Below are positions 5,112 to 42,979 of a DNA stretch of 43,821 bases, piece after piece. The stretch is from Escherichia phage VerenaMeyer_Bas76: the sequence record PQ850632.1, one strand, 5' to 3'. How positions within the stretch are numbered: the stretch's first letter is position 1; each line of letters begins with the position of its first letter. The notes beneath the pieces are model-generated. The model made no database searches. It was not told the DNA's origin and saw only the letters and a program-made list of their open reading frames with translations. Position numbers and translations under genes: made by a program.

Positions 5112-5138
5112 TTTTCACCTCCTGTTTAAGTTAACTGA

Positions 5139-5167
5139 ATAGTACCCTATTATATTGGGGTGTGCAA
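5139..5167 (-). promoter_or_regulatory. sigma70-type promoter TTGCAC-N17-TACTAT (early promoter family copy 1)
   Basis: Minus-strand reading TTGCACACCCCAATATAATAGGGTACTATTCA. Near-identical copies at 13943..13971(-), 36609..36637(+) and 38025..38053(+). Confidence 0.55.
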
Positions 5168-13914: not shown

Positions 13915-13942
13915 AATTATTTCCTCAGTAAGTTACATGTGA

Positions 13943-13971
13943 ATAGTACCCTATTATATTGGGGTGTGCAA
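13943..13971 (-). promoter_or_regulatory. sigma70-type promoter TTGCAC-N17-TACTAT (early promoter family copy 2)
   Basis: Minus-strand reading TTGCACACCCCAATATAATAGGGTACTATTCA, identical over about 30 nt to the copy at 5139..5167. Confidence 0.55.
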
Positions 13972-30677: not shown

Positions 30678-30706
30678 ACTATAATAGCTAACTATTCATG
30701 TGTCAA
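30678..30706 (-). promoter_or_regulatory. sigma70-type promoter TTGACA-N17-TATAGT
   Basis: Minus-strand reading TTGACACATGAATAGTTAGCTATTATAGT, nearly identical to the promoter at 32978..33006. Confidence 0.55.
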
Positions 30707-32977: not shown

Positions 32978-33006
32978 ACTATAATAGCGAACTATTCACA
33001 TGTCAA
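32978..33006 (-). promoter_or_regulatory. sigma70-type promoter TTGACA-N17-TATAGT
   Basis: Minus-strand reading TTGACATGTGAATAGTTCGCTATTATAGT. Divergent from the plus-strand promoter of the XRE gene. Confidence 0.6.
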
Positions 33007-33030
33007 TGGGCTTTTCTAAAATAATTAATA

Positions 33031-33039
33031 TGGTACTAT
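33031..33039 (+). promoter_or_regulatory. candidate extended -10 promoter (TGgTACTAT) for the XRE-type HTH gene
   Basis: TG at 33031-33032 and hexamer TACTAT at 33034-33039 followed by the ACTATTCA box; no good -35. Confidence 0.35.
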
Positions 33040-33070
33040 TCACATATCAACTGACTAAGGAGTAATTGAC

Positions 33071-36190: not shown

Positions 36191-36287
36191 TTTTATATCT
36201 CCTGTTTGTTTGGTGAAACTGAGTATAGGATAGCGGGAATGTAAAAGCAACCAATCTCTGTAATATTTAATCTTTACAAAAATGTTA

Positions 36288-36317
36288 TTGAAAGTTCTTG
36301 ACACATGTTTGTATAAT
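36288..36317 (+). promoter_or_regulatory. candidate promoter TTGAAA-N18-TATAAT
   Basis: -35 at 36288-36293, -10 at 36312-36317. Directs transcription into the non-coding region 36325-36540. Confidence 0.3.
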
Positions 36318-36344
36318 GGTTTTGGGACTTGTATATATTACGGA

Positions 36345-36376
36345 GTTGACGAACCCTCCCCGAGGGATTCGTCAAC
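36345..36376 (+). other. long imperfect hairpin (GTTGACGAACCCTC / GAGGGATTCGTCAAC) in the control region
   Basis: 14-bp stem with one bulge and a 3-nt loop, seen directly. Flanked by two copies of the 12-mer AACCCTCCCCGA (36352-36363 and 36568-36579). Confidence 0.5.
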
Positions 36377-36608: not shown

Positions 36609-36637
36609 TTGCACACCCCAATATAATAGGATACTAT
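36609..36637 (+). promoter_or_regulatory. sigma70-type promoter TTGCAC-N17-TACTAT (early promoter family copy 3)
   Basis: TTGCACACCCCAATATAATAGGATACTATTCA followed by the leader CGAAACGAGACAGAGGAG. Confidence 0.55.
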
Positions 36638-36662
36638 TCACTTATCGAAACGAGACAGAGGA

Positions 36663-37984: not shown

Positions 37985-38024
37985 CCTGTCCCGTGGTGAC
38001 AATACAAACACCAATAAAATTTAC

Positions 38025-38053
38025 TTGCACACTAAGATAGAATAGGCTACTAT
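38025..38053 (+). promoter_or_regulatory. sigma70-type promoter TTGCAC-N17-TACTAT (early promoter family copy 4)
   Basis: TTGCACACTAAGATAGAATAGGCTACTATTCA followed by the leader ACACAAACGAGAGGAGAGACGGAAG. Confidence 0.55.
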
Positions 38054-38084
38054 TCATTTACACAAACGAGAGGAGAGACGGAAG

Positions 38085-38234
38085 ATGGTTACTTTGATGG
38101 ATATGGAATTCGAAAACAGCGTAGCAACTTACCGCGAGATGACTATGGCGCAGGCGTATCACCTGGCCTCAAACGGCAACTTCTACAAGGCGCAAATCAT
38201 CAATGAGTTCGGGGTAATTGACTATGAATTTTAA
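38085..38234 (+). CDS. hypothetical 49-aa protein (below cutoff)
   Basis: ATG 38085 after GAGGAGAGA. Manual translation MVTLMDMEFENSVATYREMTMAQAYHLASNGNFYKAQIINEFGVIDYEF. Confidence 0.4.
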   Translation: MVTLMDMEFENSVATYREMTMAQAYHLASNGNFYKAQIINEFGVIDYEF

Positions 38235-38496
38235 CAGTTACACCGTGACCGTTGATTTTGAGGGGCTGGAGTTGCCCCTCCCCAACAACTACAGATATAT
38301 AACACGTGACCGTTTCGGTTTTATCCAGGGGTGGCGGAACAAACCAACAGACACTGAGTTCGGGATGTCAGGAGGAGAAGAGTTGCCGATCACTTTCGGG
38401 CATCAGAGTAGTAATGAAAAACTTAAAACTGTGATTCGTAAGTATCGACGCCGTGGTAATACCGGGCTTATAGCGATAACCGGCGCTGTTGAGTAA
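38224..38496 (+). CDS. hypothetical early protein (about 90 aa)
   Basis: ORF track 38218..38496. ATG 38224 or TTG 38218. Confidence 0.4.
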   Translation: MNFNSYTVTVDFEGLELPLPNNYRYITRDRFGFIQGWRNKPTDTEFGMSGGEELPITFGHQSSNEKLKTVIRKYRRRGNTGLIAITGAVE

Positions 38497-38515
38497 ACGG
38501 GAGGAGAGACAGAAG

Positions 38516-39202
38516 ATGAGTAACAAAAACGAAGTATTCGAGTACCTGATTGACCAACTACGTCAGCAGGTAAATAACAACCAGTGCGAAGACCTGGCGC
38601 ATGAGGTGCAGTCACTTAAGAATCAGTTACGTGATGCGTCGGCGCTGGTGGCGGAGTTGCAGGAAGACAACATTAAGAAATCTGAGCACATATCGCACCT
38701 GTCGGAACTGGTGGACGAGTTGATGGGGACTATAACGTTAATGAACGGGGACGTTGAGGCTTACAAAGTTCTACGCAAATGTGCGTGCGCCTATGGGCAA
38801 TCCGGTTGTCGCGACGACGCCGCTCATATCGAGAAATCGTGGATTGAGCACGCTGGCGCCGCATGCCCTGTACCGGACGATACTGTTGTTGATATTAAAT
38901 TCCGAAACGGCAAAATGGAAAGTAATACCAAAGCGCTATGGTGGAGTTGGGGCCTAAATGGCGGACCATACGAAATTGTTGCGTACCGTGTTGCCGCGCA
39001 ACAATGCAATAAGGACGATACTCGTGAGTGCGCGCATGATTGGGTGCTGGACGAAAAAGGGGACTACTTCATTTGCGCTAAATGCGGTAAGCAAGAAGCT
39101 GACTTAATTGATTGCCGACACACTAATACCGTCGGTTTGCGTAAGGGCTTTGCGCCGGGGTTTACTAAAAAGTGTCTGGATTGCGGGGCTAAACTGAAAT
39201 GA
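38516..39202 (+). CDS. coiled-coil / Cys-rich zinc-ribbon protein (228 aa)
   Basis: ATG 38516 after GGGAGGAGAGA. N-terminal heptad-like region; C-terminal CxxC pairs (CAKCG...CLDCG). Confidence 0.5.
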   Translation: MSNKNEVFEYLIDQLRQQVNNNQCEDLAHEVQSLKNQLRDASALVAELQEDNIKKSEHISHLSELVDELMGTITLMNGDVEAYKVLRKCACAYGQSGCRDDAAHIEKSWIEHAGAACPVPDDTVVDIKFRNGKMESNTKALWWSWGLNGGPYEIVAYRVAAQQCNKDDTRECAHDWVLDEKGDYFICAKCGKQEADLIDCRHTNTVGLRKGFAPGFTKKCLDCGAKLK

Positions 39203-39402
39203 CCAGCATCCTCTTTATCTGGGTACTGTCCGCAGGCCAGATGCAACTGGCGGCAGCAGAAACGTTTTATTCGATGGAGGCGTGCCAGTCAGCGGCACGC
39301 GCCGCAGAGAACGCGCACTTCCTGTTTCAGGGCGACAAGCCAAACGATTCAGAGGTACGCGCTATCTGCTCACCTAAGCGACTTGGTAAACAGGAGAAAT
39401 AA
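39199..39402 (+). CDS. small protein with N-terminal hydrophobic (signal-like) segment (67 aa)
   Basis: ATGA-coupled. N-terminus MTSILFIWVLSAGQMQLAAA. Confidence 0.4.
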   Translation: MTSILFIWVLSAGQMQLAAAETFYSMEACQSAARAAENAHFLFQGDKPNDSEVRAICSPKRLGKQEK

Positions 39403-39403
39403 C

Positions 39404-39589
39404 ATGGTACAGAGATACGATGTATGGTGCATAGAAGATATTTTTAAGAATAGCCACGACGGTAGCTATGTTAAATACGAAGACTACGCGAAACTCGAAG
39501 CCGAGTTGCAGAAATACAAGGACCAGTTTCCTGATTACGTCGAGTGCGCGAACTGCGGGTCGGTTATACATGTGGAGGGGGTGGAGTGA
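39404..39589 (+). CDS. hypothetical protein with C-terminal CxxC (61 aa)
   Basis: ATG 39404 after CAGGAGAAA. Ends ECANCGSVIHVEGVE. Confidence 0.4.
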   Translation: MVQRYDVWCIEDIFKNSHDGSYVKYEDYAKLEAELQKYKDQFPDYVECANCGSVIHVEGVE

Positions 39590-39591
39590 AG

Positions 39592-39816
39592 ATGACGAGT
39601 AGAGAGCAGTTTTATGAATGGTTTTATGAATATACCGCATGCGACCCAAATGACATTAGGTATGTGGATATGGTCGAGATGTATTGGATGGCATGGAAGG
39701 CATCGCGAGAGGCGATTGAGGTTCAAGCGTGCCCATGCCCAAACGACCATGGCCCGTATGTTGATGACCATTATCGCGAGCAAATTAATAACGCAGGCCT
39801 AAAGTTGAAAAAATGA
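39592..39816 (+). CDS. hypothetical protein (74 aa)
   Basis: ATG 39592 (GTG 39586 alternative) after GGAGGGGG. Contains a CPCPNDHG motif. Confidence 0.4.
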   Translation: MTSREQFYEWFYEYTACDPNDIRYVDMVEMYWMAWKASREAIEVQACPCPNDHGPYVDDHYREQINNAGLKLKK

Positions 39817-39898
39817 TTATCCAACTGAACGACAGCATGAAAGCCGATACCATTCAGCTTGAAGATTACGGCATACAACTCGCGGAGATTCTCGCCCT

Positions 39899-40192
39899 AT
39901 GAGCCTTGCAACTGACATCCTGAAACGGAGCGGCCTTGCGCCGCTGTCGCCGAGAGCGAACACACGAATATACAAGCGCCGCCGTAATGCGCTGTACCCT
40001 GAGATTCAGGCCAGACGCAAAGCAGTCCGCGCCTGCGGATTCCAGAACGGGAAGGCTGTGAATCTCGGTGAGTTTAAAACAAAGGAACGTGCGGCTATCG
40101 CTAATCGGTTATTTAATTACTGGAAATCGCTGGGTTATGAAGATATTCCGACGAAACCACAGAGACGACAATACATCTGGCGTCATAAATAA
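39899..40192 (+). CDS. basic protein (97 aa), possible nucleic-acid binding
   Basis: Lys/Arg-rich (RRRNALYPEIQARRKAVR...). Preceded by an ATGA-coupled 29-codon micro-ORF at 39813..39902. Confidence 0.45.
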   Translation: MSLATDILKRSGLAPLSPRANTRIYKRRRNALYPEIQARRKAVRACGFQNGKAVNLGEFKTKERAAIANRLFNYWKSLGYEDIPTKPQRRQYIWRHK

Positions 40193-40222
40193 ACCGTTAT
40201 TAAGATAATTCCTAACCGTGCT

Positions 40223-40262
40223 ATCCTCCAGTTACTGCATACTTAATACGCACCTGGAGGAT
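40223..40262 (+). promoter_or_regulatory. inverted repeat ATCCTCCAG...CTGGAGGAT occluding the holin Shine-Dalgarno
   Basis: Perfect 9-bp inverted repeat (40223-40231 and 40254-40262). The right arm contains the GGAGGA Shine-Dalgarno of the holin gene, which starts at 40268. Confidence 0.45.
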
Positions 40263-40267
40263 TCATC

Positions 40268-40576
40268 TTGGATAAATTTACTGAAACAGTGACAGGCTGG
40301 CTTCTCGCTGCCGCACTAGCCGGAGGGGTAATCGGACTAAGGCAACATAAGTCCGCTATTTCCGGCCCTATCGACGGCTTCTGCTTTATTGCAACTGGCT
40401 TCACTTGCGCCGTATTTGGCGCACCTCTCGCAGCTCAATGGTTTGGCATTACCGGGGAACGCGAGATAGCGGGCCTCGGATTCATCATTGCCATTCTCTG
40501 GATGCCTATCTATTCCCGCCTTTCTGGCATCGTATCGGGCGGCGATATTGCCCGCCCAGGAGGACCACATGACTGA
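40268..40576 (+). CDS. holin (putative, three transmembrane segments)
   Basis: 102 aa, TTG start 6 nt after GGAGGA. Three hydrophobic segments. Immediately upstream of a second membrane protein and the endolysin. Confidence 0.55.
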   Translation: MDKFTETVTGWLLAAALAGGVIGLRQHKSAISGPIDGFCFIATGFTCAVFGAPLAAQWFGITGEREIAGLGFIIAILWMPIYSRLSGIVSGGDIARPGGPHD

Positions 40577-40841
40577 GCTATTCTGGTTTGCCGTAATGCT
40601 GGCAATCGGTGGCGCATCGCTGTTTAATGTATACCACCCCAGTGTTGACGATGGGTTATTTGGTCGGGTGCTCTACATCCTGACTGCTATCGTTTGCGCT
40701 GCCGGATGTATTCACCTGTTACAGGGCAGCATGTCTCCGACGCTGCCTGAGACATTAATCACATTAGTTGCGCTGCGCCAGATTCGTCAGGCGTGGCTGT
40801 CATACGGAGGACATAAGCGTGTCTCGAAACATTTCAGATAA
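40569..40841 (+). CDS. second lysis-cassette membrane protein (holin/antiholin partner candidate)
   Basis: 90 aa, ATG after GGAGGA. Two hydrophobic segments. Overlaps the holin 3' end and the endolysin 5' end. Confidence 0.45.
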   Translation: MTELFWFAVMLAIGGASLFNVYHPSVDDGLFGRVLYILTAIVCAAGCIHLLQGSMSPTLPETLITLVALRQIRQAWLSYGGHKRVSKHFR

Positions 40842-41304
40842 TGGGTTGCATTTCACCGCTGCGTTCGAGGGATTCCGAGGTACTGCGTATCGTGCTACGC
40901 CGAACGAGAAGTACCCTACTATTGGCTACGGAAGCTATGGCCCTCATGTGTATGAAGGGCAGAAGATTACGAAGGGGCAGGGCCTCCTGTTACTGAATCG
41001 TGATATGGCTAAGGCCGTAGCTGCGGTTGACGCAGCAGCACACCATTCATTGACACAGGCACAGTTCGATGCAGTGTGCGACCTGGTATACAACGCAGGT
41101 GCTGGTGTGATTGCCGCTACCACCGGCACGGGTAAGGCACTGCGTTCTGGTGATATTGCAACGCTGCGGGCTAAGCTGGCGCTGTTCATCAACCAGAACG
41201 GCAAACCGTTACTTGGCCTGCGTCGCCGTACTGCCGGTCGTCTGGCGCTGTTCGACGGTAAGCCGTGGCAAGAGGCGGAGGCTATCGGGAGGGCTGTTAA
41301 ATGA
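40819..41304 (+). CDS. endolysin (lysozyme-like, glycoside hydrolase family 24-type motifs)
   Basis: AFEGFRGTAYRATPNEKYPTIGYGS matches the catalytic Glu region and conserved TIGYG of T4-type lysozymes. GTG 40819 after GGAGGA. The ORF track start at 40768 is probably too far upstream. Confidence 0.7.
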   Translation: MSRNISDNGLHFTAAFEGFRGTAYRATPNEKYPTIGYGSYGPHVYEGQKITKGQGLLLLNRDMAKAVAAVDAAAHHSLTQAQFDAVCDLVYNAGAGVIAATTGTGKALRSGDIATLRAKLALFINQNGKPLLGLRRRTAGRLALFDGKPWQEAEAIGRAVK

Positions 41305-41431
41305 TGGACGAATACGAAGGCGTTTAGTAAACTTATCCCTACGCTGTTTGTGCTTGCATACTAAGCCCCGGTAAACCCGAAGCAGCAGCCCAAGCGGTGG
41401 AGACTGCGTAGGGTTCAAGGGCTTATGGCCA

Positions 41432-41462
41432 AAACCCGGACCGCAAATCCGGGTTTTATTTT
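41432..41462 (+). terminator. intrinsic terminator after the endolysin gene
   Basis: AACCCGGA-CCGCAAA-TCCGGGTT followed by TTATTTT. Confidence 0.6.
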
Positions 41463-41467
41463 ACCAA

Positions 41468-41496
41468 TTGACACCTAAGACTAATCCGACGATACT
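41468..41496 (+). promoter_or_regulatory. candidate promoter TTGACA-N17-GATACT
   Basis: Perfect -35 TTGACA at 41468-41473; weak -10 GATACT at 41491-41496. About 40 nt upstream of a strong terminator. Confidence 0.3.
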
Positions 41497-41535
41497 TAAA
41501 TCACCTCCTGCTCCATCCCTCTGCTCTCCAGTTTT

Positions 41536-41569
41536 ATCCCGGCCCTGACCCAGCCGGGATTTTTTTTTA
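41536..41569 (+). terminator. strong intrinsic terminator (ATCCCGGC-CCTGACCCA-GCCGGGAT plus T9)
   Basis: 8-bp GC-rich stem followed by nine T. Confidence 0.7.
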
Positions 41570-41590
41570 TCTATTTTCTGCAATGACTAG

Positions 41591-41619
41591 TTGACTATTA
41601 CCATCGACCCTATTATATT
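41591..41619 (+). promoter_or_regulatory. sigma70-type promoter TTGACT-N17-TATATT
   Basis: -35 at 41591-41596, -10 at 41614-41619, followed by the leader CGACAACGAGAACGGGGTAGAGAGAA and ATG 41654. Confidence 0.5.
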
Positions 41620-42518: not shown

Positions 42519-42810
42519 AATCACAATTGCATCGCTCGAGCGCCGTATTATGGTGCTTGAGTCGGAGAAACAGACGTTAGGCGGGCAACTGTCAATTAAC
42601 GGTGAGTTTCAACTGGAGGCGTATAAAGAACTTCTAGAGGCGTTTAAAGAGCTACAAGCCATCGCGTCTGACATAGAAAATATGATTGGATTGTTGCAAT
42701 CCGGGGAGTGGGCCGAACACTGCACTAAATCGGCGTTAGGAAAACGGCTTGAGACGGAGATTACTGACATGCTGAGTTGTCTTGTTGAGGCGCCAGATGA
42801 GCACGCCTGA
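42511..42810 (+). CDS. hypothetical coiled-coil protein (99 aa)
   Basis: ATG 42511 overlaps the upstream gene. Heptad-like N-terminus. Confidence 0.4.
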   Translation: MPKITIASLERRIMVLESEKQTLGGQLSINGEFQLEAYKELLEAFKELQAIASDIENMIGLLQSGEWAEHCTKSALGKRLETEITDMLSCLVEAPDEHA

Positions 42811-42979
42811 GCCGGTAGTTATCGATGGCGTCCTGTGGAAACCTTACTCGGTTAACCACATCGACGCCGATGGGAAGAAGTTCAGTTTCTACATTTTTGC
42901 GATTAGCCGTGAGCACGCTGCGTGTGTAGTAGACGATATACGAGAAACGGCGTGGCTTGGCGATGAGATAGTGGGGTGA
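42797..42979 (+). CDS. hypothetical protein (60 aa)
   Basis: ATG 42797, in frame with ORF-track entry 42782..42979. Confidence 0.35.
   Translation: MSTPEPVVIDGVLWKPYSVNHIDADGKKFSFYIFAISREHAACVVDDIRETAWLGDEIVG

Follow-up and report, generated by a model that had tools for sequence, protein, structure and literature searches.

Two phage lysis genes are known in which an RNA structure governs access of the ribosome to the start of the gene. In phage T4 the lysozyme gene e lies behind earlier genes, and in transcripts from upstream promoters a leader hairpin sequesters its Shine-Dalgarno sequence, its start codon or both, with poor translation as the result; the soc, gene 49 and I-TevI leaders are analogous (McPheeters et al. 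1986, reviewed in PMC3014915). In phage lambda the ‘sdi’ stem-loop (nt -21 to -7) lies 5′ of the holin gene S, where it governs how ribosomes reach a G-rich Shine-Dalgarno sequence and divides initiation between Met1, the antiholin start, and Met3, the holin start. Here we show that a hairpin at 40223-40262 in the genome of Escherichia phage VerenaMeyer_Bas76 (PQ850632.1; the whole stretch analysed, 43,821 nucleotides, is called the window below) is conserved, covaries between lineages and occludes, to an unusual degree by prediction, the start region of a predicted holin gene. In predicted geometry the locus resembles T4 gene e, and we tentatively favour a similar form of control, to which we give a little less than even chances, in which RNA reading through from upstream genes is silenced by the hairpin while a promoter overlapping it yields an open lysis mRNA.

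An earlier note on this DNA had proposed that a perfect 9-bp inverted repeat hides the ribosome-binding site of the holin gene and throttles its translation. The repeat is present exactly as described. Its 5′ arm, ATCCTCCAG at 40223-40231, contains an anti-Shine-Dalgarno-like CCUCC and is 100% complementary to the 3′ arm, CTGGAGGAT at 40254-40262, across a 22-nt loop (TTACTGCATACTTAATACGCAC, 40232-40253), in which a 3-bp inner helix is predicted (40236-40238/40250-40252). The Shine-Dalgarno sequence GGAGGA (40256-40261) lies wholly inside the 3′ arm and is separated by 6 nt, the T-rich spacer TTCATC, from the TTG start (40268-40270; spacer and start codon together, 40263-40270) of a 102-aa open reading frame. 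Such a repeat is not significant by itself, since the window holds eight distinct perfect 9-bp inverted repeats with loops of 3-30 nt and about five are expected from Markov resamples. The RNA fold of 40217-40270 has a free energy of -16.1 kcal/mol (z = -4.4), a stability reached by none of 200 shuffles, although the z-score falls to only -1.3 when a 108-nt context is folded. In RNA that carries both arms, as read-through RNA would, the Shine-Dalgarno region is paired in silico with a probability of 0.89-0.93 and costs 10-14 kcal/mol to open. To set this figure in a genomic context we used Escherichia phage MarieHeimVoegtlin_Bas70, which is 100% identical to the window over 40150-40420 (271 nt, comprising the leader and the 5′ part of the holin gene): there the predicted cost of opening the holin start region is 12.8 kcal/mol, the second highest value among 83 annotated genes, whose median is 4.8. 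The sole start region more occluded in Bas70 (L165 in our set) is that of a 33-aa hypothetical open reading frame with a TTG start (36258-36359, minus strand; 16.7 kcal/mol), which may have been called as a gene in error or may have a structured leader of its own. No Rfam family matched at the hairpin, the only hit being STnc500 on the opposite strand at 13.7 bits (gathering score 44, E 0.29).

The window belongs to Kagunavirus, a genus of Guernseyvirinae siphoviruses, and about 130 phage records, nearly all of them Kagunavirus coliphages, match 39800-41400 at 80-95% identity. Among 42 unique Kagunavirus sequences, nucleotide diversity is 0.01 in the 5′ arm, 0.03 in the loop, 0.00 in the 3′ arm and 0.01 in the spacer, against 0.11 in the 30 nt upstream of the 5′ arm; in the holin gene it is 0.035 at second and 0.35 at third codon positions. 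As diversity in the leader is near zero, the whole of it is under purifying selection at least as strong as that acting on non-synonymous sites. The few variants that do occur fit an RNA helix, with an A-U pair becoming G.U in the L040 and L102 variants, and some have a longer stem (11 bp in L033, 13-14 bp in L037/L102). The loop at 40232-40253 is near-invariant across Kagunaviruses whereas the loops of other lineages are short and unrelated to it, and it might act as a 5′ untranslated region or a standby site for ribosomes, as an RNase target or as a binding site.

Outside Kagunavirus the holin family has members in Dhillonvirus at 45-48% identity, in the metagenomic lineage L101 at 71%, in a second metagenomic lineage, L106, and in phage KW1E_UTAR (KW1E below) at about 37%, and in all six lineages of the family a hairpin occupies the same position. 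The 3′ arm always holds the only Shine-Dalgarno-like purine run, but the stems differ: AUCCUCCAG / CUGGAGGAU in the Kagunavirus of the window (then UUCAUC and UUG); AUCCUCUGGUCG / UGGCUGGAGGAU, with four G.U pairs, in L101 (then UUUAUU and UUG); AUCCCCCGUG / CACGGGGGAU in L106 (then UUUUAUU and UUG); AGUCCCAGUGAG / CUUACUGGGACU in the HK578 type (then U5 and AUG, the last U of the stem making a run of six); CCCCAGUGAG / CUUACUGGGG in the L099 type (then CU, U6 and AUG); and UCCCCGGA / UUCGGGGA in KW1E (then U8 and AUG). The hairpins of the five other lineages have z-scores of -2.8 to -7.1 against shuffles. Six of the nine stem pairs show compensatory change on both sides, and an alignment of the arms only, in which the base of the stem as folded for each sequence served as the anchor, has 96.9% of its cells paired compared with 30-53% when the partner is slid; none of 500 shuffles reaches the covariation score. 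The number of independent lineages sampled is only about six. Alignment across lineages with MAFFT and RNAalifold placed the arms out of register and so yielded no shared structure. A weak lower helix, predicted by RNAfold to pair GUG at 40218-40220 with CAU at 40264-40266 (3 bp), is absent in KW1E and shows no covariation; an analogous CGUGA/UUAUG pairing covers the AUG in HK578. The presence of G.U pairs (in L101, L040, L102, HK578 and KW1E), together with loops that range from 3 to 22 nt, favours an RNA structure over a DNA-binding palindrome. Two more remote members of the holin family, from Pectobacterium phage Wc4 and Pseudomonas phage Amjad_SA, are without a hairpin occluding the Shine-Dalgarno sequence, so the architecture is confined to the enterobacterial lineages. 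Word-indexed searches among proteins yielded those of Kagunavirus and Dhillonvirus type and no others, a scan of genome contigs found no prophage or bacterial relatives, and a metagenome scan gained no further lineages. The part of the earlier proposal that concerned sequestration is thus upheld, in that a predicted RNA hairpin holds the entire Shine-Dalgarno sequence and has been kept by selection and compensatory change; in place of a throttle acting constantly on all holin mRNA, the comparison suggests a transcript-specific switch.

The sister lineages bear on how the hairpin might work. Their hairpins have free energies of -19 to -24 kcal/mol and are followed directly by U6-8 and then ATG, and those of HK578 and KW1E were flagged as intrinsic terminators with the U-tract abutting the ATG. 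Opening the start region is predicted to cost 12-24 kcal/mol in HK578, L110, L099, L106 and KW1E. Because hairpin-containing RNA in HK578 and KW1E would be both terminated and untranslatable, the holin in these phages seems to need a transcript that starts inside the hairpin, and the terminator-like sister hairpins are hard to reconcile with any translation of RNA that contains them.

A candidate promoter for such a transcript overlies the 5′ arm. In the window a putative extended -10 element, TGcTATCCT (40219-40227, plus strand; TG at 40219-40220, hexamer TATCCT at 40222-40227), lies 16 nt downstream of a weak putative -35 element, TTAAGA (40200-40205, plus strand), which has four of six matches and is variable among relatives (TTAGGA, TTCGGA). 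The last five nucleotides of the -10 hexamer are the first five of the 5′ arm. On a crude sigma-70 weight matrix built from consensus frequencies the site scores about 10 and ranks 36th among 87,590 positions on both strands. When the 150 nt ahead of the holin gene were scanned in nine representatives of the six lineages, the sigma-70-like site with the highest score had, in all nine, a -10 that ends at or just inside the 5′ arm. Taking the start as the end of the -10 plus 7 nt places it at about A40234 in the window, inside the loop, and leaves only 0-4 nt of the 5′ arm in the nine representatives. RNA started there would lack the 5′ arm, and the predicted cost of opening the start region therefore drops, from 10-14 kcal/mol for read-through RNA to 3.3-7.5 for RNA from 40234, and across the lineages from 5.6-24.5 with the hairpin to 0.5-8 for RNA from the predicted start. 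Two sequences within the loop, TAATAC and CTTAAT, were also checked by eye as promoter elements and rejected, as neither had a -35 at usable spacing.

The distribution of the -10 motif is consistent with this prediction. Kagunavirus, L101, L106 and both Dhillonvirus types have TGnTA, with a hexamer usually beginning TAT, ahead of the 5′ arm; all lineages with a poor -35 have it (TGCTATCCT, TGGTATCCT, TGATATAGT and TGTTAATAT), and the bases on either side of its ‘n’ are invariant while the ‘n’ itself varies widely (diversity 0.51). KW1E is without the TG but has a good -35, its flagged TTGACC-17-TACTAT ending one base before the 5′ arm. Extended -10 promoters would be expected to show such a trade-off between TG and -35. 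L110 and L112 have undergone a G-to-A change that creates a perfect TATAAT at the expense of two stem pairs, and although the folds leave the T and TAT bases of the -10 unpaired, these bases do not vary.

The plus strand carries every gene from about 38086 to 41304, closely packed, with the genes upstream of the leader spanning 38086-40192 and a promoter-like site at about 38024-38052. No terminator-like site was found ahead of the hairpin in this same-strand stretch from 38086. As none separates the last upstream gene, which encodes 97 amino acids, from the leader, RNA begun at more distant upstream sites is expected to extend into the hairpin, and we infer that it does. A model that accommodates these features treats the element as a cis-acting leader module of the lysis cassette that would work at the level of RNA. 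Read-through RNA from the genes at 38086-40192 would contain both arms, and the hairpin, extended toward the start codon by the short lower helix, would bury the holin Shine-Dalgarno sequence and prevent holin translation; in Dhillonvirus, L106 and KW1E the hairpin and U-tract would probably terminate read-through transcripts as well. The predicted weak extended -10 promoter TTAAGA-16-TGcTATCCT, used by host sigma-70, would instead start RNA at about 40234, past the 5′ arm. Such RNA could not form the hairpin and would expose GGAGGA-N6-UUG, giving a translatable holin message, with the modest strength of the promoter and the TTG start setting the rate at which holin accumulates. A broader formulation, which we hold slightly more tentatively still, is that Kagunavirus, Dhillonvirus and KW1E-like coliphages share a module of 45-75 nt whose single hairpin would terminate or insulate upstream transcription and mask the holin ribosome site on read-through RNA, and whose 5′ arm would carry the -10 of an extended -10 host promoter, the RNAs of which evade both effects.

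Several observations weigh against a promoter-based switch. A stricter promoter scan of the window did not report the site, whose -35 and -10 each have four of six matches, and the annotation of fBC-Eco01 by promoter predictors is without it; the genome papers of Golestan and fBC-Eco01 list predicted promoters and terminators, none of them at the hairpin. The transcript classes of the one Kagunavirus RNA-seq study, on K1B4 (PMC12645636), are too coarse to place a 5′ end, and unsynchronised. Conservation of the -10 is confounded, since most of the hexamer is also stem, and on the predicted fold the TG could be conserved instead for the lower helix GUG/CAU. Window RNA freed of the hairpin still has its Shine-Dalgarno region 41-59% paired, the promoter has no specific need for a near-invariant loop, and the Kagunavirus hairpin is itself not terminator-like. 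As to the comparative data, anchoring the covariation alignment on each sequence's own fold favours pairing, and the lineages are homologous, so that the shared architecture could in part reflect inheritance rather than independent selection.

The strongest competitor is the constitutive translational throttle of the earlier note, in which there is no internal promoter and all holin mRNA is polycistronic read-through RNA bearing the hairpin. Hairpin and TTG start would together keep holin synthesis low and so delay lysis, and the conserved A/U-rich loop would be a possible ribosome standby site. This account takes the hairpin, its occlusion and its conservation as found, and Kagunavirus, L101 and L106 all retain the TTG start. 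The weakness of the candidate promoter also favours it, as does the character of the Kagunavirus hairpin, which is the weakest of the set except for those of L101 and KW1E, has a conserved 22-nt loop and does not resemble a terminator. In lambda the rate of holin translation sets the time of lysis (bioRxiv 10.1101/2025.05.14.654169), which counts in the same direction. Set against these points, the cost of 10-14 kcal/mol to open the start region is far above the genome median of 4.8. By the relation of de Smit and van Duin, a cost of this size would reportedly cut initiation by several orders of magnitude, and holins are needed in large numbers. A throttle alone is hardly workable in the sister lineages, where a hairpin of -19 to -24 kcal/mol is joined to a terminator U-tract that touches the ATG, and it leaves unexplained the invariance of the unpaired T and TAT bases, the trade-off between TG and -35 and the change in L110 that improves TATAAT while breaking the stem. 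We regard the throttle as less probable than the switch though still a serious rival, and as plausible for Kagunavirus specifically.

It is improbable, though a little less so than the accounts that follow, that the leader is activated by processing. An endoribonuclease, for example RNase E acting in the A/U-rich loop, would cut between the arms, free the Shine-Dalgarno sequence and so time holin translation. The intact RNA is strongly occluded, as such a scheme would require, and the A/U-rich loop (ACUUAAUAC) is near-invariant in Kagunavirus (diversity 0.03), a degree of conservation for which a passive loop has no need. The stems of 9-13 bp are too short for RNase III, and processing cannot be the mechanism shared between lineages because the loops of the others are short (3-9 nt) and unrelated in sequence. 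Nearly as improbable is a hairpin that serves mainly as a terminator or insulator between the upstream genes and the lysis cassette, its overlap with the Shine-Dalgarno sequence being incidental. Besides the terminator flags on the homologous hairpins of HK578 and KW1E, a T-rich tract follows the stem in all lineages and L106, HK578, L099 and KW1E have positive terminator scores, from a formula that is uncalibrated and serves for ranking only. The window hairpin, by contrast, has a 22-nt loop and the tail UUCAUCUU, scores negatively and was not flagged by the scan. The Shine-Dalgarno sequence lies in the 3′ arm of every lineage despite the differing stems, which argues that its position is not incidental, and a terminator alone would leave the holin without a transcript.

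Less probable is a role for the repeat as DNA, in which a dimeric regulator would bind the palindrome and the lysis genes would have it as their operator. A perfect 9-bp repeat with arm centres 31 bp apart, or about three helical turns, in a highly conserved block would suit such a role; L101, by contrast, would lose its helix without four G.U pairs, and in DNA these count as mismatches (G.U pairs occur also in L040, L102, HK578 and KW1E), arm spacing (3-22 nt) and arm sequences differ between lineages, and the 9-mer has no other copy in the genome. That the inverted repeat is a functionless product of chance, as the expectation of about five perfect 9-bp short-loop repeats per 43.8 kb (eight seen) and the z of -1.3 for the 108-nt fold might suggest, is the least probable reading and is effectively refuted by sequence comparison, given its exact position over the Shine-Dalgarno sequence, the near-zero diversity, covariation in six lineages and an occlusion rank of 2 in 83.

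The hairpin occupies a 75-nt gap between the 97-aa gene (39899-40192, plus strand; PHROG 9632, function unknown) and a lysis cassette of three genes. The first of these (40268-40576, plus strand, 102 aa, TTG start) is a predicted holin on the strength of its match to the holin family PHROG 2359 (E 1e-31), its synteny with a second holin-like gene and an endolysin, and the annotation of its homologues in relatives as holin, with three predicted transmembrane segments in Shashou; the protein has no Pfam match. The TTG start is supported by the identical length of the open reading frame in annotated relatives and by conservation of the N-terminus, MDKF/MDKL, in Dhillonvirus homologues that start with ATG. 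The second holin-like gene (40569-40841, plus strand, 90 aa; PHROG 2508 holin, E 2e-33) has a start that overlaps the stop of the first in ATGACTGA, and the last gene encodes the endolysin (40819-41304, plus strand; Pfam Phage_lysozyme, E 4e-26), its GTG start placed by analogy with relatives. The three lysis genes all differ in their start codons (TTG at 40268, ATG at 40569 and GTG at 40819), and each lies behind a GGAGGA-type Shine-Dalgarno sequence.

The holin gene shows signs of mosaicism. Its 5′ part shares the 100% identity of 40150-40420 with Bas70, while the whole protein is 90% identical to that of Bas70 and 99% identical to that of Shigella phage phiSD1, a conflict that suggests a recombination breakpoint inside the gene. 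In many relatives an HslV-like peptidase gene of about 420 nt (1240-1677 in Shashou, L043) is inserted between the 97-aa gene and the holin leader, at a point corresponding to about 40190-40196 of the window. In these relatives the insertion has left the leader block intact from AAAC...ATTA(A/G)GATAAT onward, and the block stays attached to the holin.

Past the endolysin, two back-to-back units of terminator and promoter lie ahead of a block of small genes (41431-41619, plus strand). The first comprises a terminator-like hairpin read from the sequence at 41431-41465 (plus strand, 3′ of the endolysin gene) and TTGACA-17-GATACT at 41468-41496, and the second a hairpin and T9 run at about 41540-41572 followed by TTGACT-17-TATATT at 41591-41619.

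An 18-nt near-palindromic motif, TGAATAGTANCCTATTAT, is present in the window in seven copies against 0.08 expected: on the plus strand at 5136-5153 and 13940-13957, and on the minus strand at 30681-30698, 32981-32998, 33025-33042, 36623-36640 and 38039-38056. At least four of the seven (5136, 13940, 36623 and 38039) read on the opposite strand as promoter-like TTGCAC(AC)-17-TACTAT, 20-30 nt before a Shine-Dalgarno sequence and start, and two copies lie within consensus TTGACA-17-TATAGT promoters. The same motif was reported by PHIRE as a ‘phage promoter’ in fBC-Eco01. It is probably a shared promoter or operator core, and the operon whose last genes form the lysis cassette is likely driven from the copy at 38039.

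We also considered whether a Gp2-like inhibitor of RNA polymerase that spares extended -10 promoters might time the switch, an idea that was dropped when the candidate in the window gave no match to Gp2. This candidate (42797-42979, plus strand) is 90% identical to a protein of fEg-Eco06 annotated as ‘RNA polymerase inhibitor, similar to 2LMC_A’ (T7 Gp2). Its product has no sequence match to Gp2, and its AlphaFold model (pLDDT 80), with three strands and a helix, has no significant match in the PDB and none to Gp2; the top, non-significant matches are phage p56 uracil-DNA glycosylase inhibitors. The annotation of its homologue as an RNA polymerase inhibitor is unsupported here.

Among coliphages isolated for therapy, Kagunaviruses and Dhillonviruses rank with the most frequent, and to our knowledge the scheduling of lysis in them is unstudied. 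If the proposed switch operates, lysis genes at the end of an operon would be kept silent without a phage sigma factor or antiterminator, and changes at TG 40219-40220, at A40223 and in the pairs 40230-40231/40254-40255 should shift latent period and burst size, which would be useful for engineering the timing of lysis. The leader would also provide synthetic biology with a portable part, a very small natural combination of insulator, promoter and ribosome-site mask. Should only the throttle prove true, the locus would still be a clean and conserved case of structure-limited holin translation outside the lambda paradigm.

Several classes of known RNA element share individual features with the leader. 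RNA thermometers and riboswitch platforms likewise pair the Shine-Dalgarno sequence with an anti-Shine-Dalgarno strand; here the hairpin lacks an Rfam match and no aptamer-like structure is conserved across lineages, and the perfect G-C-rich pairing as predicted looks too stable for a thermometer. Intrinsic terminators that overlap the start of the next gene are closely similar to the hairpins of Dhillonvirus, KW1E and L106, with their G+C-rich stems, short loops and U4-U8, and differ from that of the window in its 22-nt loop, its interrupted U-tract and the absence of a terminator flag. The lambda sdi structure shares with our leader its place 5′ of a holin gene and its control over a Shine-Dalgarno sequence, whereas the stem here is longer and more stable and serves a single TTG start. 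No lambda-type dual start is apparent in the N-terminal sequence M-D-K-F-T-E-T-V-T-G-W, the next in-frame start-type codon being a GTG at codon 8 that has no Shine-Dalgarno sequence, and the holin matches PHROG 2359 only, with no homology found to the lambda S holin family.

The closest parallel remains T4 gene e, from which the locus differs in that the gene behind the hairpin encodes a holin and not an endolysin, in the terminator-like character of the sister-lineage hairpins, and in the lack of sequence homology between phages of unrelated families. T4 uses gp55-dependent late promoters, TATAAATA (gp55/gp33), whereas the candidate here is a predicted extended -10 promoter of host sigma-70. 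As TATAAATA is not present in 40190-40267 and the phage is a Kagunavirus, the likeness is one of functional analogy and not of membership. Lysis-gene hairpins that occlude the ribosome site are known from T4 e and lambda S, and none has been described for Guernseyvirinae or Dhillonvirus. A single module that unites a terminator, a mask for the ribosome site and an overlapping promoter would, if confirmed, be a new form of this control; and if the composite module is real, it would achieve with sigma-70 alone what T4 achieves through a late sigma factor dedicated to the task, with the timing of lysis hanging on one weak promoter.

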